64,000 nucleotides of DNA from Patescibacteria group bacterium (GTDB taxonomy: Bacteria; Patescibacteriota; Minisyncoccia; Phycocordibacterales; PALSA-1337): NCBI GenBank assembly GCA_028865095.1, contig JAGWLA010000001.1:47244-111243 (forward strand), read 5' to 3'. Positions 4,751-44,797 of the stretch are shown here, one piece after another. Position 1 is the first letter of the stretch. Every line of letters starts with the position of its first letter. A program made the position numbers and the translations under genes. Below the pieces are notes generated by a model, which saw only the letters and a list, made by a program, of their open reading frames with translations, searched no databases and had not been told where the DNA came from.

Positions 4751-4777
4751 TAAGGAGCCGAGAGCAGCGCTCTCCGC

Positions 4778-4807
4778 GGCCCCGCCGACAGATCGATCGG
4801 CGGGGCC
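4778..4807. terminator. GC-rich hairpin (10-bp stem) after rpsG, candidate bidirectional terminator
   Basis: GGCCCCGCCG / CGGCGGGGCC inverted repeat 28 nt after the rpsG stop. No clear U-tract. Confidence 0.4.
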
Positions 4808-4892
4808 GTTGTCGCATCCGATGGCCATAAAGCGCCGCGCCGCGCGATAAAAAAGCTCCTATGAAGGAGCTGGGGTCATCAGGCTGTCTCAT

Positions 4893-5288
4893 TCAGCGCC
4901 TTGTCAGCGCCGTCATGGCGATCGGTCCAGGGCCGCCCATGAGGGTGCCGCCGTCCGACCGCCTGAATTGCTTCCGAGGCAGGCGTATCCACCGGTTTGA
5001 GAGCGGAAGGAATAGCGCCTCGGATGGCACTGATCGCGACACTGCCAACCCTTCGTACTCGAGCTTCTCGAGCGAGCTCTCGACATCGGCGGCTTTCAGC
5101 CGCCCGCGGATGTGGACCTCCATATCTTGCTTGATCGTCCCGATGTCCTCCCATTCCGGACGCAGCACCTCCATGAAGTCGTAGTGGCCTACTTTGACGA
5201 AGCGCTGCGCGTGGAGATATGCGATCAAGCCGACGGCCGATGCCGCGAAGATGGCTAGGTATACGTCAGACGGGTCTATAGCGCTCAT
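4893..5288 (-). CDS. Hypothetical small membrane protein
   Basis: N-terminal TM helix and high GC3 in this frame. No recognisable family. Confidence 0.35.
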   Translation of the reverse strand: MSAIDPSDVYLAIFAASAVGLIAYLHAQRFVKVGHYDFMEVLRPEWEDIGTIKQDMEVHIRGRLKAADVESSLEKLEYEGLAVSRSVPSEALFLPLSNRWIRLPRKQFRRSDGGTLMGGPGPIAMTALTRR

Positions 5289-5424
5289 AGCAATGTTCTC
5301 TGTGCTTATTTGCGGGAAGGGTAGCCCGGAGGCCGGGCTCTGTCAATGCTCAGAGACGCAGTCGACGGCTCGCCCGAAGGCTGCTATGATTGCTGCATAA
5401 CAACGTACGAGCTAATCCAATAAC

Positions 5425-5868
5425 ATGAGCGCGATCAAAAACTATGCGGCAGGCTTCTTCATCCTCGCGGTGGTGGTCTTGGCAGCCATATCCATCCTCG
5501 GCGTCTGGGATATCCTCAAAGGCGATGTCATCACCAAATCATTCCAGACCCTCGGCCTCTTGGCCTTCGTCGCCGCGATCGTCATGATCGCCGGCCGGGC
5601 CATGGATTCGAGGTCGGAGGCGGTCTATGTTCCCAGCCCTGTCTGGGCGAGCCTGCGCAAGGGCACGCTCGGCCTCCTGATCGCGGCAGTATCCATACTC
5701 GCGCTTCTCGGCATACTCTCCATCTGGGACATCATATCCGACCAGAACGTGCTCTTCAGGTCGATCGGTTCCGTCGCTATCCTGGCTTTCTCCGCCCTGA
5801 TCATCGTCGGCACATGCAAGACCATGGAAGGGGACAAGAAAGCCTCGATGCCGCCGGCTTCACAGTGA
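5425..5868 (+). CDS. Hypothetical 4-TM membrane protein with an internal duplication
   Basis: Two repeated halves (ILGVWDILKGD... and ILSIWDIISDQ...), each with two TM helices. Confidence 0.5.
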   Translation: MSAIKNYAAGFFILAVVVLAAISILGVWDILKGDVITKSFQTLGLLAFVAAIVMIAGRAMDSRSEAVYVPSPVWASLRKGTLGLLIAAVSILALLGILSIWDIISDQNVLFRSIGSVAILAFSALIIVGTCKTMEGDKKASMPPASQ

Positions 5869-5882
5869 ACCTTCGTTCACCT

Positions 5883-5888
5883 ATACTG
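5883..5888 (+). promoter_or_regulatory. TATACT -10 box 5 nt upstream of the dinB ATG (leaderless pattern)
   Basis: CCTATACTGTCTGGATG. Confidence 0.4.
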
Positions 5889-5893
5889 TCTGG

Positions 5894-7153
5894 ATGCGCA
5901 GGCATGACCCAGACTTCCCGAAAGCCATAGTGCATATCGACGGAGATTCGTTCTTCGTCTCGTGCGAGCTGACTCGCCGGCCGGAGCTGAAAGGCCGGCC
6001 ATGCGTGACGGGAATGGAGCGGGGGATCGCCACAGCGGCTAACCCGGAGGCCAAAGCCCTCGGCGTCATCAGGGGCATGCGAGTCAGCGACATCCGGCGC
6101 CTCTATCCGGGAACAGTCATCCTCGAGTCCGACTACGGGCTCTATCGCGATATCGCCGGCAAGATGTACGAGATCGTCCGGCGCTACGCTGACGACGTGG
6201 AAGAATACTCGATCGACGAATGCTTCGCTGATCTGACCGGCCTCGACCGCCCGTCCCATACGACTTACGAAGCCATGGCCCGGGCCATCCAGGCCGACCT
6301 TCACCGGGAGCTCGGAGTGACATTCGGCGCCGGCCTCGGGGTCAATAAGGTCACCGCCAAGATCGCCTCTAAATGGCGCAAGCCGGCAGGCTTCACGGTC
6401 ATCCGTCGCGGGGATATCCCGCGCTTCCTCGAGGCTCTGCCTATCGGCAAAGTCTGGGGCATCGGAGGCCGCACGACGGTCTCTCTCCGCAGCCTCGGCA
6501 TCGTCACCGCTCTCGACCTGGCCCGCAAGGACCGGGCCTGGGTGGACGAGCGGTGCGACAAGCCTTTGCGCGAGATATGGGAAGAATTCCAGGGCGCGTG
6601 CGTCAAGCCGGTGGTCGGAGGCTCCGAGCAGCACGGGTTCGCGTCCGTCCAGCGCACCCGCACTTTCTGGCCCGCCACTGCCGACCCGGCGTTCCTTTGG
6701 TCCCAGGTCTCATCGCACGCGGAAGACGCATGCGAGAAGCTGCGCGCCGGCGGCCGGCTCGCGCGCCGCGCTTCGATCATGCTGAAGACCCGAGATTTCT
6801 CGTATCTCAGGAGCGAAGCGGAGCTCCCCGATCCGACGGCCGCTCCCGAAGAGGTCCTTCGGGCCCTTCGGCCGCGCTTCGAGGCGCTCTTCCGCCCTGG
6901 CTTGGCCTATCGGGCGAGCGGCATCTCGCTTCATGGCCTTGCCGTCGAAGAAGCCATGACCGGGAGCTTGTTCGCTCCGCCGGAGCGCCTCAGCAAGTCT
7001 CGCGCCGTCCATGCCGCCGCCGACCGCTTGGCGGCCCGCTTCGGCAAGGGCATCGTTTTCCTCGGATCCAGCTGGCAAGCGGTCAAAGAGGGCAGGAAGA
7101 GCGGGCGGCCGCGGGAGAAGCCGTCGCGGGGAGGGATCAGGTTCCTGGAGTGA
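5894..7153 (+). CDS. dinB: DNA polymerase IV (Y-family translesion polymerase)
   Basis: IVHIDGDSFFVSCE and SIDECFADLTG catalytic motifs of the DinB/UmuC family. Confidence 0.85.
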   Translation: MRRHDPDFPKAIVHIDGDSFFVSCELTRRPELKGRPCVTGMERGIATAANPEAKALGVIRGMRVSDIRRLYPGTVILESDYGLYRDIAGKMYEIVRRYADDVEEYSIDECFADLTGLDRPSHTTYEAMARAIQADLHRELGVTFGAGLGVNKVTAKIASKWRKPAGFTVIRRGDIPRFLEALPIGKVWGIGGRTTVSLRSLGIVTALDLARKDRAWVDERCDKPLREIWEEFQGACVKPVVGGSEQHGFASVQRTRTFWPATADPAFLWSQVSSHAEDACEKLRAGGRLARRASIMLKTRDFSYLRSEAELPDPTAAPEEVLRALRPRFEALFRPGLAYRASGISLHGLAVEEAMTGSLFAPPERLSKSRAVHAAADRLAARFGKGIVFLGSSWQAVKEGRKSGRPREKPSRGGIRFLE

Positions 7154-7174
7154 CCTCCGGCTCTGTCGGCGTGC

Positions 7175-7180
7175 TATACT
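7175..7180 (+). promoter_or_regulatory. TATACT -10 box 6 nt upstream of ATG 7187
   Basis: GCTATACTTTTCCCATG. Confidence 0.35.
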
Positions 7181-7186
7181 TTTCCC

Positions 7187-7459
7187 ATGTCAGACCACCC
7201 GTCTCTCGATGCGATCCGGGAAGAAGAGCGCAAAGTCCGCGCCGCGGTCAAGGAGAGGCTCGTCGGCTATATCCTTGCGGCGTTCGGCTTTGTGGCCGGC
7301 TTGGCCTGGAACAACGCCATCACCGGAGCCATCGACCATTTCTTCCCGAAGGCCGGCAGCGGCGTCATCGCCCAATTCATATATGCCATCGTCCTGACGG
7401 TGGCGGTAGCCGTCGTCGCTTACTACATCTCCCGTCTCTTCGTCGAAGAGAAAAAATAA
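7187..7459 (+). CDS. Hypothetical small 2-TM membrane protein
   Basis: 90 aa with two hydrophobic helices. Confidence 0.5.
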   Translation: MSDHPSLDAIREEERKVRAAVKERLVGYILAAFGFVAGLAWNNAITGAIDHFFPKAGSGVIAQFIYAIVLTVAVAVVAYYISRLFVEEKK

Positions 7460-7508
7460 AAAACCCATCTTTCGATGGGCTGCTGAGCTCACTGGCAGGG
7501 CCGGGCTT

Positions 7509-7916
7509 TTAGGCGGAGCGGGCGTGGTACAGTATGCCGGCGACGACCCATTCCATGGCTCGTGCCCGCTTCTCGGGGGACAGAGCCTCTTCTCCGCTCT
7601 CGCGCTCCTCCTCGATCCCCATCGTGACTTTGATGACGCCGTCGACGATGAGCCGGTAGCGATCAATCCCGAATTCTCGAGCGGTATGGGCGTTCTCGTC
7701 CAAGTGCTTGGTCAGAGCTTTAGCGTCGAGAGTGCTGAAGAACATCGATCCGTCGCTCACTTGAAACCCCCGATAATGTCCCAGGCTCGAATATATGAAG
7801 GCGAGGAATTCGTCGCCAGCGATCCCGTTAAGGTCGATGCTGGTGATGACGAATCCGTGCCCGCAGTCCTTGGACACCTTATCGGTGAGAGTCGGCGCCG
7901 CTGTAGCAGTGCTCAT
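7509..7916 (-). CDS. Hypothetical protein (about 135 aa)
   Basis: Start taken at MSTATAAP. No family recognised. Confidence 0.45.
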   Translation of the reverse strand: MSTATAAPTLTDKVSKDCGHGFVITSIDLNGIAGDEFLAFIYSSLGHYRGFQVSDGSMFFSTLDAKALTKHLDENAHTAREFGIDRYRLIVDGVIKVTMGIEEERESGEEALSPEKRARAMEWVVAGILYHARSA

Positions 7917-8079
7917 AGGAATCTCTTTCTCTTTTATTGGTTGTGAATATGTCGGTTCGCACTGATTTATGACACATTTCTTTTTGTTTTGCAACTGTGG
8001 TCTATGCTTTGCCGATATCGCCTGATATCCTCTGCAGGAGGGAAAAAGATCATGCATGATTGAATTCCGGGCGACGGTA

Positions 8080-8087
8080 TGTATAAT
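8080..8087 (+). promoter_or_regulatory. Extended -10 (TGTATAAT) upstream of the surface-protein gene P1
   Basis: TGTATAAT lies 35 nt upstream of ATG 8123. Confidence 0.35.
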
Positions 8088-8122
8088 GCCGCCATTAATA
8101 CGAATACAAAAACAGAGAATCC

Positions 8123-10393
8123 ATGTCGCAAGATATATCAGTCACGGGAAGAACGGTTGGCAAGAAGGGAAAGGATGGCGGCAGACGCTACGGATCGCTA
8201 TGGACGGCCTATCTGGCAGTCGCGGCTGCCGTCGCAGGGTTCTTAGGGTCGGTGCCGACCGCTGACGCTGCGGTCGCATATGTCCAATCAGCGAGCGGCT
8301 CGGCTTGGGGCGCGTCCGCTTCGGCGACGTTCCCGTCGGCCGTGACCGCCGGCGATATCATCGCCGTGGCGGTCGGCAGGAACTATAGCCCGACCTCGTC
8401 GACCATCGCCGACGACTGCGGCGCGGGCGGAGCGAGCGATGCCTATACCGTCGTCGACGCCCAGGACGGCGTGGCTACGGCCTATGCCGTCGCCGGACGG
8501 ACGGGGGCATGCACGGTGACCTACGCATGGGCGAGCTCGGGCACGTCCGAGACGAACATCGCCGCCCACGAGATCAGCGGCGTCGACGCGACGAATCCTG
8601 TCGATGCCCACGCCAGCTACTGGCAAAGCGGCTATGGCGACTACACGGCGGCCGACTCGATCAGCAGCGGCGCGGTCTCTACGTCGCATGATGGCGACTA
8701 CCTGTTCGGTGCGACTCAGAACGTCAGCCTCCAGAGCGCCTCGGTCGACGCAGGCGCGGGATACGTCCTTCGCCAACGGGTCATGAACTCGCTGACCACC
8801 GCGACCGAGGATCGGGTCCAGCCAGCGGCGGGAAGCGCGGCGGCGACTTTCACCAACGGCGCGTCGTGCAACGGCGGCTGCACCTTCGTCACGTCTCTCA
8901 TAGCCTTTGCCCCGGCGATCTCCGGTCAAGGCCAGAGCCTCCAGATGCCTCCGTCCGTCGCCTCGTTCTCCGCATCTCCCTCGTCCATCGGCCCCGGTTC
9001 GTCCGCGACCCTTTCCTGGGACGTGTCGTCCGCAGACGCGGTGACGATCAGCGGCATCGGGCCGGTGGCGACCTCGACCGGTTCGGTTCAGGTCTCGCCC
9101 GCCACGACGACCGGATATGTCTTGACGGCGACGAACGCGGCCGGCACCACGACGGCGACGGCGTCTGTCGCGGTCGTCAGCGGCGGATCCATCGGCCCGG
9201 TCGACACGTACCTCGACCTTTCGACCAGCACTTCAGGCGCGCATCTGACGGCCGCTCTCCTGAACGCGGGAACCCAGGGCGTCCAGGCGTGGGGCCCCCT
9301 CACGGATTACGGCGTCGCGACGTCGTCGACCGCCGGCATGACCGTCGCCACCAGCCAGCACGGTCTTTTGGCGCCGGTCAAGGTGGGCCCGACCGTCTTT
9401 CCGGCCAGTCACCAGACCCAGAGCATCGCCCTGGACAACGGCTACTACTACGAGAAGGCCGAGCAATACGTCCCCAGCGGCCACCGTTCGACCACGATCG
9501 CCGGCTGGGTGACGCTCGGTCCGCCGGACGCGGGCGTGAACGGCAGCACTTACGATTTGGCCTTCATCTATGGCGCGCCGGCCGGCGACTTCGCCGGGCT
9601 CCAATTGCGGACGGGCGCGCCGACCTACCATCTCTGGATCGAGACCGGCACGCCGACCGTCCATAGCAACCAGATCCTGGTCACGCCTGGCGCCACCTAC
9701 TGGTTCGCTCTCAATGCCGACTATGCTGCCGGCCTCGCCAAGCTGGCGGTCTTCGACGTCTCGGGCAACCAGGTCGGTTCGACCGTCACGGCGCCGCTCC
9801 CCGTCGGGGATACGGTCAGCTCGTTCCTCATCGGCAACGACGAGATAGGCGTCGCCTCCAGCACGACCTATTTCGAGGATATCATGGCTGATTACACGAA
9901 CGCGTCGTTCCCGTTAGGCCCATTGCCGTATGCTGCGCCGACGGTCTCGTCGGTCATGTCGACGCCTGCCACGACTACGGCACAGATCGCTTGGACTACC
10001 AGCTCGGCCGCCTCGTCCCAAGTCGCCTTTGGGACGACGACTGCGTACGGATCGACCACGGCGCAGACGGATCTGTCGCCCCTGGTTACGTCGCACGCGG
10101 TGGCGCTCGGAGGCCTTTCGGCCTGCACGACGTACCACTATCAGGTCGGCTCGGTCGACGCGTTCCTTAACGGCGCCACCAGCACCGATCAGACGTTCAC
10201 GACTGCCGGCTGCTCGTCGGGATCGACTTCGACGACGACCGGCATGTGCAGCCTCGCGAACGGCAACGGCACGGTCTCGGAATCGTCCCTCGATGCCGTC
10301 CTGCTCCCCGCTGTCCTGCCGCCGTCGTGCCCTGCAGGCTATATCTGCATACCGATGTCGTCTCTCTTCCGGATGTCGTCATCGACCCCGTAG
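8123..10393 (+). CDS. Large secreted Ala/Ser/Thr-rich surface protein (P1) with Ig/PKD-like, LamG-like and FN3-like modules
   Basis: Signal-peptide-like N-terminus (AVAAAVAGFLGSVPTADA). Segments LSWDVSSADAVTISG... (Ig-like) and TTAQIAWTT...TTYHYQV (FN3). C-terminal CPAGYIC motif. Confidence 0.7.
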   Translation: MSQDISVTGRTVGKKGKDGGRRYGSLWTAYLAVAAAVAGFLGSVPTADAAVAYVQSASGSAWGASASATFPSAVTAGDIIAVAVGRNYSPTSSTIADDCGAGGASDAYTVVDAQDGVATAYAVAGRTGACTVTYAWASSGTSETNIAAHEISGVDATNPVDAHASYWQSGYGDYTAADSISSGAVSTSHDGDYLFGATQNVSLQSASVDAGAGYVLRQRVMNSLTTATEDRVQPAAGSAAATFTNGASCNGGCTFVTSLIAFAPAISGQGQSLQMPPSVASFSASPSSIGPGSSATLSWDVSSADAVTISGIGPVATSTGSVQVSPATTTGYVLTATNAAGTTTATASVAVVSGGSIGPVDTYLDLSTSTSGAHLTAALLNAGTQGVQAWGPLTDYGVATSSTAGMTVATSQHGLLAPVKVGPTVFPASHQTQSIALDNGYYYEKAEQYVPSGHRSTTIAGWVTLGPPDAGVNGSTYDLAFIYGAPAGDFAGLQLRTGAPTYHLWIETGTPTVHSNQILVTPGATYWFALNADYAAGLAKLAVFDVSGNQVGSTVTAPLPVGDTVSSFLIGNDEIGVASSTTYFEDIMADYTNASFPLGPLPYAAPTVSSVMSTPATTTAQIAWTTSSAASSQVAFGTTTAYGSTTAQTDLSPLVTSHAVALGGLSACTTYHYQVGSVDAFLNGATSTDQTFTTAGCSSGSTSTTTGMCSLANGNGTVSESSLDAVLLPAVLPPSCPAGYICIPMSSLFRMSSSTP

Positions 10394-10480
10394 ATATTTG
10401 ATTATTCCGCTGATTTCTTGTATCCTACGCGTACCAAAGCCGCCGCGCTTTTTTAATTTAATAACCGCTCCCATCATCAT

Positions 10481-12646
10481 ATGAACCGCGATTACCCCCT
10501 GGATCGAGTGCGCAACTTCGGCATCATCGCCCACATCGACGCCGGCAAGACGACCACGTCCGAGCGCATCCTCTATTACACCGGCATGATCCACAAGATC
10601 GGCGAGGTGCACGAAGGCGAGACCACCACCGACTGGATGGAGCAAGAGCGCGAGCGCGGCATCACCATCACCGCGGCCGCCATCACGTGCTTCTGGAATC
10701 CCACGTATCTCCGAGGCGTCAAAGGCCCCGACGGCAAGGACGACGTCTCCAAGAAGGTCCGCTTCAACATCATCGATACGCCGGGCCACATCGACTTCAC
10801 GGTCGAGGTCAAGCGCTCTCTGCGCGTCCTCGACGGGGCCGTGGTCGTCTTCGACGGCGTGGCCGGCGTCGAGCCCCAGTCCGAGACCAACTGGCGCTAT
10901 GCCGACGAGGGCAACGTGCCGCGCCTCTGCTTCATCAACAAGATGGACCGCATGGGCGCCTCTTTCGAGCGCTCCTATCAGTCCATCCTCGAGCGCCTCA
11001 ACAAGCGCGCCGTGCGCTTCCAGCTCCCCATCGGCCTCGAAGCCGCCCATGAAGGCGTCGTCGACCTGATGCGCATGAAAGCCTATACCTTCACGGGGGA
11101 AAAGGGCATCGACGTCGTCGAGAGCGAGATCCCTGCCGACATGCTCGAAGACGCCAAGAAGTATCGCGCCGAGATGATCGAGAAGATCGTCGAGACCGAC
11201 GACGCCGCCATGAGCAAGTTCCTGGAAGGGGGAGAGTTCTCTCTCGACGAGCTCAAGGCGCTGACCCGCAAGGCCGTCATCGCCAACAAGCTCTTCCCGG
11301 TCTTTACCGGGTCGGCCCTCAAGAACGTCGGCGTCCAGCTCGTCCTCGACGCCGTCGTCGACTATCTGCCGTCGCCGCTCGATATCCCTCCGGTGCATGG
11401 CATCAACCCGAACACCGGCGAAGAGGTCATCCGCCATGCCAGCGACAGCGAGCCGTTCTGCGCCCTCGCCTTCAAGCTCCAGAACGACCCGTTCGTCGGC
11501 GCCCTGACCTTCTTCCGCGTCTATTCCGGATCGATCGAAGCGGGCACCTATATATATAATTCCTCCACCGGCAAGAAAGAGCGCCTTGGCCGCATCGTCC
11601 GCCTCCAAGCCGACAAGCGCGAGGAGGTCAAGAAGGTCTATGCCGGCGAGATCGCCGCCGCGGTCGGCCTCAAAGACGCCCTGACGTCGCACACGTTCTG
11701 CGATGAAGCCAACCCCATCGTCCTCGAGCAGATCAAGTTCATGGATCCCGTCATATCGCTCCGCGTGGAGCCCAAGACCAAGGCCGACCAGGAGAAGATG
11801 GGCATGGCCCTCCGCAAGCTCTCCATCGAAGACCCGACCTTCCGCATCAGCACCAATGCCGAGACGGGGGAGACCCTCATCTCGGGCATGGGCGAGCTCC
11901 ATCTCGAGATCATGGTGGACCGCATGAAGCGCGAATTCGGCGTCGAGACCACCGTCGGCGCGCCGCAGGTCGCATATCGCGAGACCATCCTCGGAGAGGC
12001 CGAAGCCGAGAACAAATACATCAAGCAGACCGGCGGCAAGGGCCAATACGGCCACGTCCGCCTGACTCTCCGCCCCATGAAGCCGCTCGTCGAAGGCGAG
12101 AAAGTCCCCAAGAACGTCAAGCGGTATGACGACTTCGAATTCGTCGACTCCATCAAGGGAGGCGTCATCCCCCAGGAATTCATCCCCGCCGTCGAGAAGG
12201 GCGTGCACGAAGCCATGGATCGCGGCATCGTGGCCGGCTATCCCATGGTCAATGTCTCTTGCGAGCTGACGTTCGGCTCGTACCATGACGTCGACTCGTC
12301 CGAGATCGCCTACAAGATCGCCGCGTCGCAGGCGTTCCAGGACGCCGCCAAGCGCGCCAAGCCCGTCATCCTCGAGCCCATCATGAAGCTCGAAGTCGTC
12401 TGCCCGGAGAAATACATCGGCGACGTCAACGGCTCCATCGCTTCCAAGCGCGGCCTCATCGAAGGCCAGAACCAGAAAGGCCAGAACGTCTCCATCATCG
12501 CCAAAGTGCCTCTTTCGGAGATGTTCGGCTATACCACGTCGCTCCGTTCGATGACGTCAGGCCAGGGCTCGGCCCAGCTCGAATTCGACCATTACGACGT
12601 CGTGCCCGCCAACGTCGCCCAGGAGATAGCGGAGAAGAGGAAATAA
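10481..12646 (+). CDS. fusA: Elongation factor G
   Basis: AHIDAGKTTTSERIL, NIIDTPGH and the full EF-G domain order. Confidence 0.96.
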   Translation: MNRDYPLDRVRNFGIIAHIDAGKTTTSERILYYTGMIHKIGEVHEGETTTDWMEQERERGITITAAAITCFWNPTYLRGVKGPDGKDDVSKKVRFNIIDTPGHIDFTVEVKRSLRVLDGAVVVFDGVAGVEPQSETNWRYADEGNVPRLCFINKMDRMGASFERSYQSILERLNKRAVRFQLPIGLEAAHEGVVDLMRMKAYTFTGEKGIDVVESEIPADMLEDAKKYRAEMIEKIVETDDAAMSKFLEGGEFSLDELKALTRKAVIANKLFPVFTGSALKNVGVQLVLDAVVDYLPSPLDIPPVHGINPNTGEEVIRHASDSEPFCALAFKLQNDPFVGALTFFRVYSGSIEAGTYIYNSSTGKKERLGRIVRLQADKREEVKKVYAGEIAAAVGLKDALTSHTFCDEANPIVLEQIKFMDPVISLRVEPKTKADQEKMGMALRKLSIEDPTFRISTNAETGETLISGMGELHLEIMVDRMKREFGVETTVGAPQVAYRETILGEAEAENKYIKQTGGKGQYGHVRLTLRPMKPLVEGEKVPKNVKRYDDFEFVDSIKGGVIPQEFIPAVEKGVHEAMDRGIVAGYPMVNVSCELTFGSYHDVDSSEIAYKIAASQAFQDAAKRAKPVILEPIMKLEVVCPEKYIGDVNGSIASKRGLIEGQNQKGQNVSIIAKVPLSEMFGYTTSLRSMTSGQGSAQLEFDHYDVVPANVAQEIAEKRK

Positions 12647-12707
12647 AGGATGTGGATAAGTCCTCTTGCGCCGATCCGTGCAAGAGCTACAATGTCACCA
12701 CTACCCA

Positions 12708-12738
12708 GGCAGCCGGCGTCCATCGGCTGCCTTTCTCC
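12708..12738 (+). terminator. Intrinsic terminator after fusA
   Basis: GGCAGCCG-loop-CGGCTGCC hairpin followed by TTTCTCC. Confidence 0.5.
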
Positions 12739-12742
12739 GTGG

Positions 12743-12751
12743 TGGTATGAT
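12743..12751 (+). promoter_or_regulatory. Extended -10 (TGgTATGAT) for the surface-protein gene P2
   Basis: Directly downstream of the fusA terminator, about 50 nt upstream of ATG 12805. Confidence 0.35.
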
Positions 12752-12804
12752 ATAGGAGATATAGACAGCATTTATTAAAGTACGCTCGTAGCAAGTTCAT
12801 CATA

Positions 12805-16290: not shown

Positions 16291-16319
16291 GATCTCGCGC
16301 GCTTGAAGCATGAAGGCAG

Positions 16320-16346
16320 AAACCCCCGTCCATCGGGGGTTTCTCG
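16320..16346 (+). terminator. Intrinsic terminator of P2, lying inside the 5' end of the track ORF 16310
   Basis: AAACCCCCG-TCCAT-CGGGGGTTT hairpin followed by CTCG. Confidence 0.45.
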
Positions 16347-38794: not shown

Positions 38795-39432
38795 CTTTTT
38801 TCGTCGAGCCGGGCGGTGACGACCAGCCTCTGGTCGTATGTCCTCTTGTCGGGCACCCATGCGCCGCCGCAGGTGATGAGCTCGATATATGAGCCTACGG
38901 CGCCGGCGGGGCCGGAGAGGACGTATGAAGGGAGGCCGCCGTATCCGTAGGAAGCCACATCCGTGACCGTGAAGGAGAGCTTCGCGCCGGACCGGGTCAC
39001 GACCTCTATGGCGTCGCCGCGCCGCGCCCCGCTCAGCTTCTTGAAGACGCCGGCGAGGCCGAGGCCGTTGTCCACGTGCCCGTCGATGATCGCCGTCCCT
39101 TCTTTGCCGGGGATCGCGGAATGGTCATACCATGCGACGCTGGTGAAATCGTCGGGCGTCCCTATGCTCCCCGAAGCCGTGGTCCCGACGTCTTCGAAGG
39201 GGGCGTCGATGCCGAGCGAGGGGATGATCAGCCTCGAAGGGTATGCCTCGAGCGTCGCCGCCGGCACTTTCTTCTCTGCAGCCGTCGCGGAGAGGACGTC
39301 CTGGGCCGCTGACCCGTCTAACGACCCGTCAGGCCGGTATATCGCCGCATACGAGAGGGTGCGCGCGAACACGACCGCCGCAGCGATCGTGAGCGCGCCG
39401 ACCGCGTATGTCGTTTTTCGCATCCGAGCCAT
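38791..39432 (-). CDS. srt: Sortase (class E/F-like cysteine transpeptidase)
   Basis: N-terminal TM anchor, catalytic His in TAIIDGHVD, TLxTC-like ELITCGG, conserved Arg in RLVVTARL. Confidence 0.8.
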   Translation of the reverse strand: MARMRKTTYAVGALTIAAAVVFARTLSYAAIYRPDGSLDGSAAQDVLSATAAEKKVPAATLEAYPSRLIIPSLGIDAPFEDVGTTASGSIGTPDDFTSVAWYDHSAIPGKEGTAIIDGHVDNGLGLAGVFKKLSGARRGDAIEVVTRSGAKLSFTVTDVASYGYGGLPSYVLSGPAGAVGSYIELITCGGAWVPDKRTYDQRLVVTARLDEKR

Positions 39433-39435
39433 GCT

Positions 39436-39903
39436 TTATGCCCGCTGCCGCCAGCTCTCGCGGGCGAGCGCGCCTACCACATATGAGGCTCCGGCCGCCA
39501 TCACCAATCCCGAGACGAGAAGGATGAGCCATTGCCTCGATGCGTCGCCGCCGGCGCCGGTATTGGGAGCGCTCGCGGGGATGAGGACCGAAGCGGCATA
39601 CCCGAGCGCGACGCCGGCGGTGCCGTTCGGGTCATGCACCGCGCTCCCGCCGTACAGGCCGATAGCGGGATCGTAGTAGACGCCGTTCCCGTAGTAATAG
39701 ATCTTCGATGCGGCAGCCGCATCCGACTGGAGGTAGTACCACCCGGCCGGAAGCGCGGAGGAATTCGACGCATTGACCTCCTGCCCGCTCGCATTATAGA
39801 GGGCCGGCATGAGGGCTTGGACTTGCGCGTCGGCGGCTGCGGCTCCCGCGAGCGCCGTCACTGCGAGGAGCCCGTTCACGATGAAGTAATAGGGTGTTCT
39901 CAT
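39436..39903 (-). CDS. Small secreted Tyr/Gly/Ala-rich protein with a C-terminal sorting-signal-like tail (candidate sortase substrate)
   Basis: Signal peptide MRTPYYFIVNGLLAVTALAGAAAADA. C-terminus SAPNTGAGGDASRQ, then the hydrophobic WLILLVSGLVMAAGASYVVGAL, then the basic ARESWRQRA. Immediately upstream of the sortase gene. Confidence 0.5.
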   Translation of the reverse strand: MRTPYYFIVNGLLAVTALAGAAAADAQVQALMPALYNASGQEVNASNSSALPAGWYYLQSDAAAASKIYYYGNGVYYDPAIGLYGGSAVHDPNGTAGVALGYAASVLIPASAPNTGAGGDASRQWLILLVSGLVMAAGASYVVGALARESWRQRA

Positions 39904-40020
39904 GGTGTTGTTCGTGCGATTAGGCGGATAATCCTATGTGCTGGCTTCTTTAGAGGCTGACGGGGCTGCGGCCGATTTCTTACATCGGCGGGCGCGCGGA
40001 TGCGGGCGCCGTGCCCGGCG

Positions 40021-41841
40021 TCAGATCACCGGCGCAGTGGTGAGGCCGAATTCTCCGGTCTCCTGGCTGTTCCCGTTCGCGTCGACCGACTTTATGATGA
40101 AGCGATAGGACGTGCCTGCGGAAAGCCCGGAGACGGTCACTTCATGGCTAGCGGCCAGCGACGGATCGACGACCGCTTGGGTGGAGCTCGCTCCGATGAC
40201 GACCGGAGAGGACGTCGAGTAGTAGACCTCGGAATCCGCGTCATCGGCGGTATCCCACGTGAGCTTGACCGAGCCGGTCCCTACGAGAGCCATGGCGTTC
40301 GATATCGTCGGGCTGGTCGAAGCGGTCGTAGTGGCCGCTGCCGCCGTCGAGAAGCTTATCTCGGAAGACGTGGCGGCTCCGGCGGCATCAGACGATCGCA
40401 CCGCGACATAGTACAGCGTCGAAGGGGAGAGGCCGGTCAGGACGATCGAATGGTTGGTGATCGAGGAAGGGTCGCTCGCAGAGAGCGTCCCCGCGCCTCC
40501 GATGACCGGCGACGAGGTCGAATAATAGGCCGTCGAATCGGAGCTCTGGTCGGTGCTCCAGCCGATGGCCGCGGTCGAGGTGCCGATGGCCGAAGCGTTG
40601 AGGCCGCTGATGACCGGAACGGATGCGGTGCTCGAAGCGGCCGTCACTTCGATGGCCGTGCTCGACGACGTCGTCAGGCCGGAAGCGTCCTTAGCGGTGA
40701 AGGTCACGGTGTAAGTCCCGGTCGCGGCGTATTCATGAGAGAACGTCGACGTCTGGAGATACACGGGCTGTCGGGCTACGAGAGCCATGAATCGCATGGC
40801 CGGCTGGTCGCCCCAGTCGACGCTGTATGACAGCGGCTGGTCCTGCGGGTCATACGCGTCGACCGACCATGTGCCTTGTTCGCCTGCAGTCAGGGAGCCT
40901 GGTCCGGCGACCGATGTTATGACCGGAGGCTTGGCGTTAGCCGGCGTAGGCGTGACGAACGATATCTCCGATGACGTGCTCATGGCGCCGTTCGGGCCTT
41001 TCGAGCCGACGACCGCGAAGTAGGTCGTGGCGCTCTGCAGGCCGGTCAAGCGGACGGCGTGGTAGAAGACATCGCCGACATGCTCGATCTGCGGCGCGCC
41101 GGACGTGTCGACAGGCGAGGAGGTCCCGTACCAGACCTCGCTATCCGAGCGCTCGTTCGTCTTCCATGCGATGGTCGCCGAAGAGGGACGCGTAGACGTG
41201 GCGCTCAAGCCCGATATGACGGGTCCCGAAGAAGAGGACGCTATGTTCACGGTCACCGACGACGTCGTGGTCAGGCCGGCGCTGTCCTTGACCGTGAAGG
41301 TCACGGTGTAGACGCCGGGCGACGAGTATTCATGGGAGAAGGAGGCGGTCTGGACGAAGACCGGCTGCGCGGCCAGGAACGCCATCCAGCGTGGGCTCTC
41401 GCCCCAGTCGACCGAGTAGCTAAGGGTCCCATTCTGCGGATCAGAAGCGCTCACCGTCCAGGTGCCGGTCTGGCCTGGCTGAAGGACGGTCGGCGACGAT
41501 ATCCCGCTGATGACCGGCGGAAGGGCTGATGTCGGCGTGGTAGGCCCGGGCGTCTGGCTGCCGTCATCGCTTCCGGCGCTGTCATCGTCCCCGTCGGCTT
41601 TTTGGCCGTCGGCCGACAGCGGCTGACCGTTCGATGCGGCTATGGAGAAAGAAGGGTGGTTCTTATTCCACCCCGGCGCGATGGCGTGCCCGAGAGCGCG
41701 GCCGTTATCTTCGCCCTTAGTCGCCGCGAAGGCGGCGAGCGAAGGCGATGCCAGCGCGAGGACGGATGCTATGGCTCCTGCGATGGCGAGGCCCTTTGCG
41801 GTCACTGATCGGTGCTTATCTCGATGTGATTGATTCATCAT
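40021..41841 (-). CDS. Large secreted surface protein (P4) with three FN3 and two PKD-like repeat modules
   Basis: Signal peptide. Repeated ISGLSA...WKTN/WSTD...YFAV/YYVAV FN3 modules and two YSVDWG...FSHEY...YTVTFT PKD-like modules. Confidence 0.7.
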   Translation of the reverse strand: MMNQSHRDKHRSVTAKGLAIAGAIASVLALASPSLAAFAATKGEDNGRALGHAIAPGWNKNHPSFSIAASNGQPLSADGQKADGDDDSAGSDDGSQTPGPTTPTSALPPVISGISSPTVLQPGQTGTWTVSASDPQNGTLSYSVDWGESPRWMAFLAAQPVFVQTASFSHEYSSPGVYTVTFTVKDSAGLTTTSSVTVNIASSSSGPVISGLSATSTRPSSATIAWKTNERSDSEVWYGTSSPVDTSGAPQIEHVGDVFYHAVRLTGLQSATTYFAVVGSKGPNGAMSTSSEISFVTPTPANAKPPVITSVAGPGSLTAGEQGTWSVDAYDPQDQPLSYSVDWGDQPAMRFMALVARQPVYLQTSTFSHEYAATGTYTVTFTAKDASGLTTSSSTAIEVTAASSTASVPVISGLNASAIGTSTAAIGWSTDQSSDSTAYYSTSSPVIGGAGTLSASDPSSITNHSIVLTGLSPSTLYYVAVRSSDAAGAATSSEISFSTAAAATTTASTSPTISNAMALVGTGSVKLTWDTADDADSEVYYSTSSPVVIGASSTQAVVDPSLAASHEVTVSGLSAGTSYRFIIKSVDANGNSQETGEFGLTTAPVI

Positions 41842-42137
41842 GTTATGTTATTGGTATCTGGTTTAACGTTGGTAATTGATAATGCTCCTATGAAGGTCTT
41901 TCCTATGCGGCTCTTTTCCCTATGCGCGCGCCGCCCCTATGCGGCACCGCGCGCAGCTCCGGCGGTTCGCGGCCGTGCGTATCGGGAGACGGGCCTCTCG
42001 ATCGTTTCTTACAGCGCGGACATGTCCCTTGCCGCGTGGACAAGCTCGGAAGGCCGTTGTATGTTTAAGGGACGGAAGCACTCGCTCGCGGTCGCATTGA
42101 CAAGAGCTGTAAGAGATATCCTCGTTATCCGTCTTCA

Positions 42138-42674
42138 ATGATGAACCACTCTCATATGAGCTCGCGCTTCACTGCCCGTTACGAGGCCGACGCGGATTCG
42201 GTGTTCCGTTTCTGCTTCTTGAGGGTGTCCGACCGCGAGCTGGCGCTGGACATCACCCAAGAGACCTTCGGGCGGTTTTGGAGGAGCTTGAGCGGGGGAG
42301 AGGATATCGCGAACGAAAGGGCTTTCTTGTTCACCGTGGCCCATCGGCTGGTGATAGATTGGTATCGCCGCAAGAAGGCGGCCCGGCTCGAAGACCTGAC
42401 GGGCGCGGACGGCGAGCCGTATGACCCGCCCGACGAGAAGACGCTCGACAGCCTCGGCCTCGAGGCGGAGGGCAGGTTCCTCGCCGATGCGATATCCAAG
42501 ATCGACGGCTCCAATCGGCACGCCGTCTATCTCCGCTTCATCGAAGGGCTGTCGCCCCCGGAGATCGGGGAGGTGCTCGGCATATCGACGGGCGCAGCAT
42601 CGGTCAGGGTGAGCAGGGGATTGGCAGAGCTTAAGAAGATAACGGGATACGACGACATCGACGAACATGAATAA
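42138..42674 (+). CDS. ECF (sigma-70 family group IV) sigma factor
   Basis: Region 2 (AFLFTVAHRLVIDWYRRKK) and region 4 HTH (LSPPEIGEVLGISTGAASVRVSRG). Confidence 0.8.
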   Translation: MMNHSHMSSRFTARYEADADSVFRFCFLRVSDRELALDITQETFGRFWRSLSGGEDIANERAFLFTVAHRLVIDWYRRKKAARLEDLTGADGEPYDPPDEKTLDSLGLEAEGRFLADAISKIDGSNRHAVYLRFIEGLSPPEIGEVLGISTGAASVRVSRGLAELKKITGYDDIDEHE

Positions 42675-43773
42675 CACACGGATGAAAGGGAAAAGCTTCG
42701 AGAAGGCCTTGCGGCAATTCAAGAAGGTTGGCATGACCGATGCCGAGAAGGCCGCCGTCCTGCGCCGCTCGACGGCGGGGGGCGACGGTTTCTTGCCGCC
42801 TGCGCATCCGGCCGCGCCGCGCCGGAAGCCGATCCGGAGCCCGTGGACGGTATACTCCGTGGCTCTCTGGATGAGAGAGCGGCGCGAATGGTCGTACGCT
42901 CTCGCGGCAGTCGCCGTCGTCAGCCTCTCGACGGGAGGGGTGGCATTCGCGGCCCAAGGCGCTCTGCCGGGGGACGCGCTCTATCCAGTGAAAGTCGACG
43001 TCACGGAGCCTCTGCAGACGGCCCTGACGTTCTCGGCCGAAGGCAAGGCCCAGCTCGCCGCCGATCTCGCCGTCGAGCGCATGAAGGAGGCCCAGGCGCT
43101 GGCCTCCAAAGGACAGCTCGACGCCTCGAAGCAGCAGGAGATACAAGCCCTTTTCGATGCCCATACAGCCGCCCTCTCGATGAGCCTGGCGACGATCAAG
43201 GCGTCGGATCCTTCCGCGGCCAAGAGCATCGCTGCCCGGTTCCAATCCGATATGCTCGACCAGGCGCAGGAGCTCGACAGGATATCCGGGGCGACATCGA
43301 GCCTCCCCGTCCTTGCTCGTGTCCCGACCGAAGCCCGCCCCGAATCTCCTTCTCGCGCCGCCCCGTCAGCCTCTCCGGCGCCGTCGCCAATCGAGGCCGC
43401 AGAGCAGGAGGAGCGGCTCCCGTCGCCGGCCGTCCGCGTGCTCTACGTGGCCCCCTCGCCCTCGCCTTTCTCTTCTCCGACGCCTCTCCCTTCTCCGGCT
43501 CTTCAGCCCGCCGTCGCACCTTCTCCTTCGCCGACCCCGTCTCCTTCGCCGACCCCGTCTCCGAGCCCGCGAGGCAAAGAAGGAGCCGACCAAGGCGACC
43601 AGGCATCCGCTCAAGCCCTGTCGGAGGCGGCGAAGCGCGCCGCCGCGGCTTTCGGAGAAGGGGATGCCCTGATCAGCGGCGACCATCATGCGGATGACCA
43701 TGCGGGTGACGGCGCGGATAACGGCGGCCATCGCTGGCCGGGGCATGTCGATCTCCGCGAAAGAGGCGATTGA
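42667..43773 (+). CDS. Anti-sigma factor-like membrane protein (single TM, periplasmic DUF5667-like domain, Pro/Ser-rich tail)
   Basis: 8-nt overlap with the sigma factor gene. TM helix WSYALAAVAVVSLSTGGVAFA. Low-complexity tail SPSPTPSPSPTPSPSP. Confidence 0.6.
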   Translation: MNNTRMKGKSFEKALRQFKKVGMTDAEKAAVLRRSTAGGDGFLPPAHPAAPRRKPIRSPWTVYSVALWMRERREWSYALAAVAVVSLSTGGVAFAAQGALPGDALYPVKVDVTEPLQTALTFSAEGKAQLAADLAVERMKEAQALASKGQLDASKQQEIQALFDAHTAALSMSLATIKASDPSAAKSIAARFQSDMLDQAQELDRISGATSSLPVLARVPTEARPESPSRAAPSASPAPSPIEAAEQEERLPSPAVRVLYVAPSPSPFSSPTPLPSPALQPAVAPSPSPTPSPSPTPSPSPRGKEGADQGDQASAQALSEAAKRAAAAFGEGDALISGDHHADDHAGDGADNGGHRWPGHVDLRERGD

Positions 43774-43854
43774 TCGGCCTTTGCACCAATTGTCTTTCCC
43801 GTTCGTACTCAATGGATATAAGGTCGCATTATCAGCCTTTACCATGCTTATTTC

Positions 43855-44226
43855 ATGCACATGAAAGCCTCTATCAAGATATACATGGCGATCGGCGCCA
43901 TAGCGGCATCCGCCGCGGCCCTCGCCCCGGCTCTCGCCGATGCGGCGACAGCCCCGTATGTGAATACGTACCAGATCCCCGGCGGGGGAGTGAGAGTGGA
44001 TATGAGCCTTCCTTCGGATTATGCCGGCCAGGTATCCACGGTCTATAGCGGCGGGAAGTGGGAGACGTTCTCCACGACCACTCCGCTCACCGCCGCCGAT
44101 CAGGCCGCTCTAGAGAAGCAGGCCCAAGCCCGCTTCCAGGTGCTGCAGCAGCTTTTCGCCGACCAGCAGAAGCTGTTCGACCAGCAACAGCAGCTCATGC
44201 AGAGCATGTTCAACGCTTCCTGGTAG
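43855..44226 (+). CDS. Small secreted Gln-rich hypothetical protein
   Basis: Signal peptide AIGAIAASAAALAPALADA and a C-terminal Q-rich coiled segment. Confidence 0.45.
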   Translation: MHMKASIKIYMAIGAIAASAAALAPALADAATAPYVNTYQIPGGGVRVDMSLPSDYAGQVSTVYSGGKWETFSTTTPLTAADQAALEKQAQARFQVLQQLFADQQKLFDQQQQLMQSMFNASW

Positions 44227-44244
44227 GCGTGCTAGGATGGGGCC

Positions 44245-44634
44245 ATGGATGCCCATGAATTCGAAGCGCTCGTGGCCGACGCCGGGTTCGGATCGGTGCC
44301 GGAGCGATACCGCGGCCTGATCTCCAATGCCGCTCTGACCATCGAGGACGACGTCTCCGAGGAGATGCGCCGAGACATGGGATTGCGGGAGGACGAGACG
44401 CTTCTCGGTCTCTATCAGGGCGTGCCGCTCACGGCTCGCGGGGACGGCTACGGCATCGGCGGCAGCCTTCCCGACAAGATCACGCTTTTCAGGCTGCCTA
44501 TCCTCGAGGCGGCCCGTCAGGACGGCGTGCCCGTGCGCCGCGTCATCGACGAGACCGTCTGGCATGAGGTGGCGCATCATTTCGGCTTGGATGAGGATGC
44601 CGTGAGGCGCAGGGAAGCGGAAAGAGGCCGATAA
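44245..44634 (+). CDS. Zincin-like metallopeptidase-fold protein (DUF1025-like)
   Basis: C-terminal ETVWHEVAHHFGLDE (HExxH). Confidence 0.55.
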   Translation: MDAHEFEALVADAGFGSVPERYRGLISNAALTIEDDVSEEMRRDMGLREDETLLGLYQGVPLTARGDGYGIGGSLPDKITLFRLPILEAARQDGVPVRRVIDETVWHEVAHHFGLDEDAVRRREAERGR

Positions 44635-44654
44635 GCCCGCCGTCGCTCGCGATG

Positions 44655-44683
44655 TTGACTCCCAGACAGCGGTCTGCTAGTAT
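44655..44683 (+). promoter_or_regulatory. Sigma-70-type promoter TTGACT-N17-TAGTAT driving the rpsZ-...-map segment
   Basis: TTGACTCCCAGACAGCGGTCTGCTAGTAT, followed by a ~110-nt leader containing the hairpin TCCGCCGGATGGCGGA. Confidence 0.45.
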
Positions 44684-44797
44684 CCAGATACCTCATATAT
44701 ACCCTGTATTGCGAGGCGAAGCGATTGGAAGCATGTCCGCCGGATGGCGGAAAGCTGACCGATCCCATTTTCATTGCCGAAAGGCGCACGAAGCCAC

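Follow-up and report, generated by a model that had tools for sequence, protein, structure and literature searches.

A probable old re-partition of the str-S10-spc ribosomal gene cluster in a clade of Patescibacteria, with accessory genes at the predicted unit borders

Introduction

The contiguity of the str, S10 and spc ribosomal genes is among the most conserved gene orders in bacteria. The present analysis concerns this supercluster in a stretch of 64,000 nt from a Patescibacteria group bacterium (assembly GCA_028865095.1, contig JAGWLA010000001.1, positions 47,244 to 111,243 of the forward strand), in the following referred to as the window, where the ribosomal genes are separated at four points by blocks of non-ribosomal genes, here called the cargo. 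An original prediction, made by a model from the letters of the window, had read these blocks as insertions that carry a cell-surface toolkit. We compared the window with related loci. As a whole, the outcome argues for an old re-partition of the supercluster, by which it would probably have come to consist of five separately transcribed units whose borders accumulate accessory genes.

Gene order in the window

Window genes were mapped as open reading frames (ORFs) guided by the GC content of third codon positions (GC3). NCBIfam equivalog models were used for the ribosomal genes and Pfam for the cargo; rplF, rplR, rpsE, rplO, secY, adk and map were identified by their order together with tblastn matches to the corresponding positions of relatives. 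The gene order with four breaks that had been claimed for the window was recovered both by the equivalog matches (rpsL to rpsH) and by tblastn synteny.

Five runs of ribosomal genes can be distinguished, all on the plus strand. The first one (3812..4750) consists of rpsL (3812-4270) and rpsG (4280-4750; equivalogs TIGR00981 and TIGR01029), the second one of fusA alone (10481..12646; TIGR00484, 1029 bits) and the third one of tuf-rpsJ-rplC-rplD-rplW-rplB (24160..28433, with tuf at 24160-25347; NCBIfam). The fourth run, rpsS-rplV-rpsC-rplP-rpmC-rpsQ-rplN-rplX-rplE, occupies 34875..38446 (NCBIfam). The fifth, rpsZ-rpsH-rplF-rplR-rpsE-rplO-secY followed by adk-map, lies at 44798..50196; its rpsZ-rpsH part covers 44798-45395 (rpsZ 44798-44983), where rpsH was assigned by NCBIfam and rpsZ by its translation, the rest of the run following from order and tblastn.

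The content and the canonical order of the supercluster are thus kept from rpsL to map, except for rpmD (L30), which is absent between rpsE and rplO (47005-47013). Physical contiguity is lost at four gaps of 5.7-11.5 kb, in detail 5730, 11513, 6441 and 6351 bp for blocks 1 to 4, all of them holding non-ribosomal genes. Block 3 starts at 28434 as had been described, while its end is 34874 and not 34875, the latter being the first position of the rpsS ATG. On the 5' side of the first run, the synteny comEC-sod(-)-MBL-M50-rpsL is kept in relatives. On the other side, the alpha operon (infA-rpmJ-rpsM-rpsK-rpsD-rpoA-rplQ) was not found 3' of map within the window, where instead ndk, an RNase J-like gene, infC (-), a PLD-family gene (-), smpB, the tmRNA (55706-56071) and ftsH follow (50221-61136). 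The spc-alpha link is also lost in the window.

Breaks in related loci

Two sets of loci were used for comparison. Set 1 consists of 80 loci, one genome per GTDB species, which were retrieved with the S3 protein and all belong to Patescibacteria; set 2 consists of 80 metagenome loci centred on fusA, so that both sets together comprise 160 related loci. The S3 proteins of set 1 are 70-92% identical to the S3 of the window, and their genomes are labelled Parcubacteria, Paceibacterota, 'Candidatus Taylorbacteria' or Minisyncoccia. The host is an uncultured, ultra-small and high-GC member of the Patescibacteria (Parcubacteria, 'Taylorbacteria'-like): the GC content is 62% in the window (GC3 about 0.8) and 31-60% in the related loci (median of the genome set, 45%). 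For a genome of the Candidate Phyla Radiation (CPR), the window is unusually GC-rich. All window proteins were compared with the set 1 loci by tblastn, and a junction was considered broken when the gap exceeded 600 bp.

In set 1, 46/54 species have a broken rplB/rpsS junction, with a median gap of 1768 bp and a maximum of 8772 bp; for rplE/rpsZ, the corresponding values are 33/43 species, 2155 bp and 7613 bp. In eight further species, the 7.4 kb 3' of rplE contain no rpsZ, and in five the 8 kb 5' of rpsS contain no rplB. In set 2, the fusA/tuf gap is larger than 600 bp in 29/46 loci, reaching up to 5 kb, and the rpsG/fusA gap in 12/58 relatives; in every relative that spans both rpsG and fusA and whose fusA is at least 75% identical, the latter gap is larger than 500 bp. 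Rarer breaks in set 1 concern rplC/rplD (7/36), rplP/rpmC (6/73) and rpsJ/rplC (1/33). All other junctions from rpsL to secY are unbroken in set 1. These include tuf/rpsJ (0/32) and rpsQ/rplN (0/72), which are the str/S10 and S10/spc operon borders in E. coli; regarding both sets together, tuf/rpsJ is broken in none of 66 loci.

The broken relatives come from many independent assemblies, including a complete chromosome of 876 kb (L018, OY969557.1). Distant Parcubacteria with a fusA of 58-62% identity are contiguous, with 0-94 nt at rplB/rpsS and rplE/rpsZ (L130, L136, L139, L149, L151, L155, L156 and L158). Judging from these comparisons, about 80% of the species of this CPR clade have breaks at positions that in E. 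coli belong to the interior of the str, S10 and spc operons. The suggestion of a lineage-specific architecture is strongly supported, as the same junctions are broken in most of the 160 related loci, often with homologous cargo.

Matches of 2.7-3.2 kb to fusA in some relatives were considered as a possible intein or insert in this gene. This was rejected, since the long matches turned out to combine EF-G with the GTPase domain of the neighbouring tuf, which is weakly similar.

Predicted promoters and hairpins at the borders

Relatives were scanned for promoter-like sites scoring at least 10 within 200 nt of a restart gene, that is, the first ribosomal gene after a break, and random 205-nt windows served as background (5%). 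In the window, the scan matched a predicted promoter 5' of rpsS (34813..34841, plus strand, TTGACT-17-TGcTACTAT) and another one 5' of rpsZ (44655..44683, plus strand, TTGACT-17-TGcTAGTAT). The latter had been attributed to the cargo; it belongs to rpsZ and is conserved in relatives. Sites of this TTGACT-17-TGnTAnnAT type precede rpsS in 51/52 and rpsZ in 29/33 broken loci, compared to the background of 5%. Moreover, where a normally unbroken junction is broken, a promoter-like site is found as well, namely before rplD in 7/7 cases (rplC/rplD) and before rpmC in 5/6 cases (rplP/rpmC). Unbroken internal junctions show such sites at frequencies of 0-9%.

Loci with narrow gaps could be separated by gap length. 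With gaps of 100-600 nt, the rpsS promoter-like site was present in 7/7 loci and the rpsZ leader described below in 8/11, while with gaps of less than 100 nt the rpsS site was present in 2/12 and an rpsZ promoter or leader in 0/7. In the case of tuf, a promoter-like site occurs in 59% of relatives whether the junction is broken or not, and it is weak in the window. In the case of fusA, a weak promoter-like site (10398..10426, plus strand, TTGATT-17-TATCCT) was read directly from the window below the scan threshold.

At the other end of the runs, a stable hairpin closes every one of them, that is, 3' of rpsG, fusA, rplB, rplE and secY. The hairpin 3' of rpsG (4776..4809, plus strand; -30.1 kcal/mol, z -4.0) is without a U tract, and the terminator scan was silent there. 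The one 3' of fusA (12708..12732, plus strand; -22 kcal/mol, z -3.4) is followed by UUUCUCC, and a terminator-like hairpin with UUUUUG lies 157 nt after rplB (28591..28611, plus strand; -18.5 kcal/mol, z -3.9). Between rplE on the plus strand and the first gene of block 4 on the minus strand, a bidirectional terminator-like hairpin with a 12-bp stem and U tracts on both strands is located at 38455..38482. A further terminator-like hairpin 3' of secY (48765-48791, plus strand) satisfied the terminator rule.

Regarding the terminators listed in the original prediction, the hairpins at 4776-4809, 12708-12732, 16319-16345 and 28591-28611 do exist, with energies of -18 to -30 kcal/mol, the first of them lacking the U tract; by the scan rule only two of the listed sites qualified, a weak one at 20136-20150 and the one at 48765-48791. 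Block 3 had been described as having no terminator of its own, which does not hold, as a strong 12-bp hairpin lies directly 3' of macB (32155-32182). Cargo genes also have their own -10 elements.

A promoter-like TCGACA-17-TACTAT was also observed at 36948-36976, between rpmC and rpsQ, thus inside the fourth run. It may be an internal promoter. A site scoring at least 9 is found 5' of rpsQ in 84% of relatives, and the rpmC-rpsQ gap (median 72 nt) is wider than the neighbouring ones.

Structured leaders at the restart genes

The approximately 110 nt between the predicted rpsZ promoter and the start codon are conserved in relatives and include a structured leader (44684..44797, plus strand, with its core at 44723-44764). 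The core can be described as GAUUGG-A-AGC, a 3-nt loop, a variable stem-loop, a 2-3-nt loop and GCU-AA-CCAAUC; in the window, the 3' side reads GCU-GA-CCGAUC. Alignment with MAFFT and RNAalifold recovered the invariant helix only and misaligned the variable stem, and was replaced by folding of each sequence together with a covariance model, R1, built from 12 copies of equal length. R1 matches the window with 28.4 bits and gave exactly one match per locus, on the coding strand just 5' of rpsZ, in 40 relatives and the window. No R1 match was found in the 80 fusA-centred loci.

All 32 copies of the rpsZ leader that were examined fold alike, with a median z of -3.7. Pairing holds for 96.4% of the alignment cells, and the outer helices vary by wobble changes at most. 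The distal stem shows compensatory double changes in 4/4 modelled pairs, and 0/500 shuffles reach the observed covariation score. The leader matches no family of Rfam 15, and the 20 leader candidates of Eckert and Weinberg 2020 do not include it. We regard it as a candidate autoregulatory leader of the operon that starts with rpsZ-rpsH.

Which protein would bind this leader can be asked by analogy. By our own comparison, its AAG/CU core partially resembles A595-A596-G597/C643-U644 in the S8 site of E. coli 16S helix 21. In E. coli, S8 controls its own spc operon through an mRNA structure that imitates this helix (Fu et al. 2013, PMC3616713); the mRNA site overlaps the start codon of rplE and is restricted to Gammaproteobacteria (PMC3616713). 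Like the E. coli site, the rpsZ leader lies near the spc genes that encode S8 and has a conserved adenosine internal loop and a variable distal stem. Unlike it, the leader would be a true 5' untranslated region before rpsZ, and its loop layout is A/AA plus a 3x3 loop. Because the loop geometry differs in this way, S8 as the partner of the rpsZ leader is put forward as a hypothesis only.

Two further elements were detected at restart genes. The first one is the 5' leader of tuf (24037..24159, plus strand), in which 24087-24095 pairs with 24127-24135. A CUUU…AAAG helix of at least 8 bp is present in 23/72 loci compared to a background of 0.9%, with several compensatory pair changes. It sits 13-33 nt before the start codon and has a conserved UCACGCC loop, and a small U-tract hairpin is located near the predicted transcript start. 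The second one is a 5'-terminal hairpin of rpsS followed by a U-rich tail (34849..34862, the element extending to 34873, plus strand; core GCUC/GAGC). This hairpin begins some 7 nt 3' of the -10 element and is found in 72/76 relatives with a promoter-like site compared to a background of 13%; the window copy is weak when taken alone (-7.2 kcal/mol). It might act as an attenuator or stabilise the 5' end. Neither the tuf leader nor the rpsS hairpin matched Rfam, and permissive scans of the three leaders gave chance-level matches only. At gathering thresholds, the only Rfam 15 families in the window are the tmRNA and one tRNA.

Gene content of the four blocks

Block 1 (4751..10480) has genes on both strands. 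It encodes a hypothetical protein of 131 aa (-), a protein of 147 aa with five transmembrane (TM) segments, DinB (5894-7153) and a DUF5654 protein (7187-7459; both by Pfam), followed by an ORF at 7509-8057 (-) and, judging from hydrophobic segments and composition, a secreted Ser/Thr-rich protein of 756 aa (8123-10393).

Block 2 (12647..24159) lies on the plus strand. By Pfam, it comprises a 1161-aa protein with PKD and PG_binding domains (12805-16290), a PMT gene (about 16364-17731), a Ppm1-like gene with GT2 and GtrA domains (17653-18900), a GT87 gene (18885-20105) and a 1260-aa protein with LamG and PG_binding domains (20202-23984). In the gene of the latter, a 96-nt repeat that is 99% identical (23607-23702 and 23862-23957) corresponds to the two C-terminal PG_binding_1 domains, and it points to a recent internal duplication or gene conversion. 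The mannosylation module that had been proposed was found as the PMT, GT2/GtrA and GT87 genes. The PMT carries PF02366 and PF16192, while its neighbour combines GT2 with GtrA_DPMS_TM and stays below every NCBIfam equivalog cut-off that would indicate a sugar specificity, so that this part of the proposal is left at the level of domains. The secreted proteins beside this module have 22-29% Ser+Thr and, in addition, a PTPTPT…TTTTST tract.

Block 3 (28434..34874) is again of mixed orientation. Three adjacent genes at 28627-32144 encode an HlyD protein (28627-30153; PF13437/PF16576), an ABC protein (30164-30904; PF00005) and a MacB/FtsX protein (30906-32144; PF12704 and PF02687). In terms of gene content, this trio corresponds to a predicted MacAB-type ABC exporter (Gram-positive YknXYZ-like), in agreement with the exporter that had been claimed. 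They are followed by a lysA-like decarboxylase (32582-33898), whose match to the NCBIfam lysA model is below the cut-off, and a membrane histidine kinase (33968-34798, minus strand; Pfam).

Between macB and the decarboxylase, we also observed a small unit on the minus strand (32155-32471). It comprises a predicted promoter (32471-32443, TTGACT-17-TATAAT plus TG, 11/12 matches), a 79-aa ORF (32204-32443) with one hydrophobic segment and a basic tail, whose start lies about 9 nt 3' of the -10 element, and the 12-bp terminator-like hairpin that also closes macB. The promoter at 32443-32471 had been listed as one of block 3; it is on the minus strand and faces the 79-aa ORF, not the decarboxylase gene. 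Likewise on the minus strand, the histidine kinase (276 aa, HisKA and HATPase_c) is divergent from the predicted rpsS promoter. No response regulator adjoins it in the window.

The cargo of block 4 extends over 38447..44654 (Pfam and NCBIfam). On the minus strand it encodes a hypothetical protein of 131 aa, a class F-like sortase (38791-39432), a protein of 155 aa (39436-39903) and a 606-aa PKD/FN3 protein (40021-41841). On the plus strand, an extracytoplasmic function (ECF) sigma factor (42138-42674), a DUF5667 anti-sigma factor (42667-43773), a secreted protein of 123 aa and a Zincin_1 protein (44245-44634) follow. The sortase matches PF04203 at 2.6e-15; for NF033748 (class F), it scores 109.8 bits with a cut-off of 166. 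The neighbouring 155-aa protein is a plausible sortase substrate: a hydrophobic segment is present at its N-terminus, and its C-terminus reads …APNTGAGG-[TM 124-148]-RESWRQRA, with a basic tail and a non-canonical motif without a model match. A sortase domain with a plausible substrate next to it is thus what lies behind the predicted sortase cassette. The ECF sigma factor is characterised by PF04542, PF08281 and TIGR02937, and the anti-sigma gene, with one TM segment and DUF5667, overlaps it by 8 nt; the domains agree with the predicted sigma/anti-sigma pair, which is moreover kept at rplE/rpsZ in relatives.

Across the four blocks, the claim of four giant secreted proteins rich in Ser and Thr is confirmed, as each of the four large proteins (756, 1161, 1260 and 606 aa) has an N-terminal hydrophobic segment and 22-29% Ser+Thr. 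They were also considered as full-length paralogues. This was rejected, as they have only FN3-like and PG_binding_1 domains in common. Altogether, eight cargo ORFs lie on the strand opposite to the ribosomal genes.

Gap content in relatives

A census was carried out with Pfam on 328 ORFs from the gaps of relatives. At rplB/rpsS, it yielded histidine kinases (29 ORFs), decarboxylases (7), MacAB components (6) and aminotransferases (5), in addition to DEAD helicases, reverse transcriptases, PBP, VanY and others. At rplE/rpsZ, Pif1 helicases (9), ECF sigma factors (6), DUF5667 proteins (5), FN3 proteins (4) and MazF toxins (4) were found besides a holin, a deformylase and a thioredoxin. The remaining junctions contain MacAB, response regulators, pyrimidine-synthesis genes, ORF6N, DUF3800, MazF and a reverse transcriptase. 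The cargo is hence heterogeneous, with 50-61 Pfam families per junction set. It follows that surface coherence is a trait of this window, and partly of the resident genes, rather than of the gaps in general. The idea of a functionally coherent surface toolkit therefore describes the window well and does not extend to the clade, where the gaps hold many other functions.

Some of the cargo recurs at the same junction. Homologues of the minus-strand histidine kinase, of the lysA-like decarboxylase and of HlyD-ABC-MacB are found again at rplB/rpsS. The sigma/anti-sigma pair is present at rplE/rpsZ in L015, L017, L018, L021, L029, L045 and L072, and the PKD/FN3 protein also recurs there. A giant PKD protein lies 5' of tuf in L006, L074, L084 and others. 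The histidine kinase is the most conserved resident of the rplB/rpsS gap in relatives. It was also observed that HlyD-ABC-MacB lies between rplC and rplD, and not at rplB/rpsS, in L059, L069 and L076 (also in L031, L049, L055, L071 and L073), so that the MacAB module appears to have moved while remaining inside the S10 genes.

The nearest relative is the metagenome-assembled genome (MAG) REEB144 (GCA_028865615.1), represented by the contigs L001 and L161. The former shows the order histidine kinase(-)-rpsS…rplE-hyp131(-)-sortase(-)-hyp155(-)-big606(-), the latter PMT-GT2/GtrA-GT87-tuf…rplB-HlyD-…-ABC. As blocks 2, 3 and 4 are found at the same junctions in this relative, they would have been inherited, although its PMT is only 59% identical to that of the window. 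In the more distant L162 and L163, PMT and GT2/GtrA come after giant PKD proteins, and their neighbours are type IV pilus genes and not ribosomal genes. This second case of adjacency speaks for a functional connection of the giant proteins with the glycosylation genes, and the position beside pilus genes indicates that the module moved into the fusA/tuf gap at some point. Altogether, these gene neighbourhoods suggest O-mannosylation of surface proteins in Patescibacteria; our literature searches returned no report of a protein O-mannosylation system in this group.

Interpretation of the split architecture

The explanation that we consider likely is that the ancestral str-S10-spc supercluster was re-partitioned long ago in the 'Taylorbacteria'-like clade of Parcubacteria. 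Five units, rpsL-rpsG, fusA, tuf…rplB, rpsS…rplE and rpsZ…secY, would apparently be transcribed separately. Transcription would restart at rpsS and rpsZ from predicted sigma-70-type promoters with an extended -10 element, and tuf, rpsS and rpsZ would each carry a conserved 5' RNA element. The borders would then have turned into long-lived sites of accretion and turnover for accessory genes, largely with envelope or surface functions in these small genomes. With about 30 kb of cargo, the window is an extreme case. Since such borders would no longer be read through, genes could land and persist there without disturbing the stoichiometry of the ribosomal proteins. And since borders free of cargo exist, we infer that the transcriptional border came first and that the site became permissive for gene accretion afterwards; separate transcription and the autoregulatory role of the leaders are likewise proposals.

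Several observations weigh against this explanation. The promoters, the terminators and hence the unit borders are sequence predictions. The promoter-like site of fusA is weak in the window, with none strong or conserved in relatives, that of tuf is weak in the window too, and the rpsG hairpin lacks the U tract. The order in which borders would precede the cargo depends on the cargo-free borders. Insertions also occur outside the ribosomal cluster, at M50/rpsL (5/34) and MBL/M50 (6/10), which means that the junctions may be ordinary operon borders and not special hot spots. Lastly, some of the cargo is stably resident, namely the histidine kinase with its 29 ORFs, the sigma/anti-sigma pair, the PKD/FN3 protein and MacAB in two S10 positions, which might reflect selection for their position and not simply tolerance.

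A more far-reaching version would state that the clade rebuilt its control of ribosomal proteins around these borders with leaders of its own (at tuf, rpsS and rpsZ), that the rpsZ leader evolved independently as an autoregulatory target of a protein encoded in spc (S8 or another one) and that the surface modules, namely the giant and then glycosylated wall-binding proteins, the sortase substrate, MacAB and the ECF switch, are kept docked by selection. We regard this version as conceivable, though rather doubtful. If true, the ribosomal cluster would be the main platform of surface variation in these episymbionts.

Among the alternatives, adaptive placement deserves most attention. Here, envelope and host-interaction genes would follow ribosome synthesis via read-through, local supercoiling, gene dosage or shared regulators. 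Most of the cargo of blocks 1-3 is indeed co-oriented with the ribosomal genes, particular cargo recurs per junction (histidine kinase, MacAB, sigma/anti-sigma and the giant PKD protein 5' of tuf), MacAB remains within the S10 genes at either rplB/rpsS or rplC/rplD, the rpsG hairpin lacks its U tract and the hairpin at 20136-20150 is weak. However, stable hairpins close the ribosomal runs, rpsS and rpsZ are each preceded by a conserved predicted promoter, eight cargo ORFs run against the ribosomal genes and cargo genes have -10 elements of their own. The same gaps also hold unrelated functions such as Pif1 helicases, toxin-antitoxin genes, reverse transcriptases and pyrimidine synthesis, and in other relatives the PMT module is found beside pilus genes, away from ribosomal genes. 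Thus, adaptive placement seems unlikely. In particular, the co-regulation of envelope proteins with growth rate by read-through that had been proposed finds no sequence support, given the hairpins, the restarts at rpsS and rpsZ and the opposite-strand ORFs.

A second alternative, which we hold to be very unlikely, is that the blocks are recently acquired islands or remnants of mobile elements in this genome. It would fit the gene of the 1161-aa protein, whose GC3 of 0.69 is the lowest among well-supported genes (a doubtful 182-aa ORF has 0.64), and also the reverse transcriptases, ORF6N protein, toxin-antitoxin genes and holins in the gaps of relatives and the dinB of block 1. Yet a comparison of base composition between cargo and ribosomal-protein genes, as the original prediction had recommended, gave no foreign signature: the 25 cargo genes average a GC3 of 0.787, compared to 0.830 in the genes of ribosomal proteins and elongation factors and 0.824 in the remaining window genes. 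With cargo at 0.79 in a genome of 62% GC and relatives at 31-58% GC, recent cargo from typical relatives would stand out. Moreover, no integrase or transposase Pfam domain occurs among the cargo of blocks 1-4, no tRNA lies at any junction (the sole tRNA of the window is at 61183), and the block edges show no flanking direct or inverted repeats, but only chance matches and internal domain repeats. Blocks 2, 3 and 4 are shared with the nearest relative at the same junctions despite a PMT identity of 59%. Therefore, of the features expected of a genomic island or mobile element (integrase or transposase, tRNA, repeats, deviant composition, absence from relatives), none characterises these blocks. 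The cargo, by these measures, appears not to be recent foreign DNA, and the idea of insertion events within this genome finds no support.

Finally, chimeric joins by assembly or binning are scarcely credible even though the source is a MAG, since dozens of independent assemblies, produced in different studies and including the complete chromosome L018, share the broken junctions, which excludes misassembly as a general cause, and since conserved predicted promoters and leaders lie exactly at the restarts and the composition is uniform across the joins.

Comparison with known systems and significance

The preferred explanation, that of an old re-partition, can be compared with several known situations. 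At integration hot spots, few intervals between core genes concentrate variable accessory genes. The gaps described here are similar in that the accessory content between conserved genes differs in related genomes. Unlike hot spots, their flanks are ribosomal-protein genes, no integrase, tRNA or att-like repeat is present, and part of the content is old and vertically inherited. In M. tuberculosis, non-ribosomal genes lie between rpsQ and rplN and between rplO and secY. As in mycobacteria, monoderms with glycosylation of the Pmt/Ppm1 type, the interruption by unrelated genes is lineage-wide; the breakpoints differ, the mycobacterial ones coinciding with classical operon ends.

Insertions into the ribosomal cluster have been surveyed in Gammaproteobacteria and Bacilli; as a rule, they are small there and most are located between classical operons (rpoBC/str, str/S10); tusDCB, bfd-bfr, ilv-leu and nrdHEF were inserted in an ancestor and then inherited, and synteny decays up to full disconnection (Brandis 2021). 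The present case resembles those of Brandis (2021) in that here too a cargo-free border, a border with cargo and a partner gene more than 7 kb away can be lined up. It differs in that the classical borders (tuf/rpsJ, rpsQ/rplN) are closed and the cuts lie within operons, with up to 11.5 kb. Regarding the putative glycosylation system, the closest parallel is the actinobacterial protein O-mannosylation by Ppm1/Pmt in Streptomyces coelicolor (PMC5882110), with a similar arrangement of a PMT enzyme of the GT-C type, a GT2 enzyme of the polyprenol-phosphate-sugar synthase kind and adjoining secreted Ser/Thr-rich proteins; here the host is a CPR bacterium, the GT2 protein has a GtrA-type membrane domain and a GT87 gene is also present.

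Interrupted ribosomal superclusters are thus already known, and what appears to be new is the combination of intra-operonic cuts, predicted restart promoters, leaders and large cargo throughout a clade. Literature searches returned no prior description of the split architecture or of the leaders in CPR bacteria. The findings suggest that stable re-partition of the cluster is possible at sites lying within operons in E. coli, with the classical borders remaining closed. The re-partition at other positions implies that the set of genes needing co-transcription would be a lineage-specific solution and not a universal constraint. To our knowledge, almost nothing is known about gene regulation in CPR bacteria, for which three candidate cis-regulatory RNAs are now available, the rpsZ leader with strong comparative support.

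The architecture has consequences for other work as well. Phylogenomic pipelines that expect 16 syntenic ribosomal proteins on one scaffold will find the block of this clade spanning at least 40 kb or divided between contigs. In addition, the gaps indicate where these reduced genomes keep variable genes for surface and host interaction, among them a probable protein O-mannosylation system in Patescibacteria.

Further observations

GC skew was considered as a clue to the distance from the replication origin and rejected, as it merely tracks gene orientation (the coding strand is C-rich). Some ribosomal proteins of the window have unusual lengths that are common to its relatives. L24 (37648-37866) has only about 72 aa compared to a model of 104 positions, S19 (34875-35225) has 116 aa with a C-terminal extension rich in Ala and Lys, and S5 (46292-47005) has about 230 aa. 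The lack of rpmD between rpsE and rplO is likewise common to the relatives. The tRNA of the window is a tRNA-Ile with a UAU anticodon (61183-61257), a rare means of reading AUA codons.

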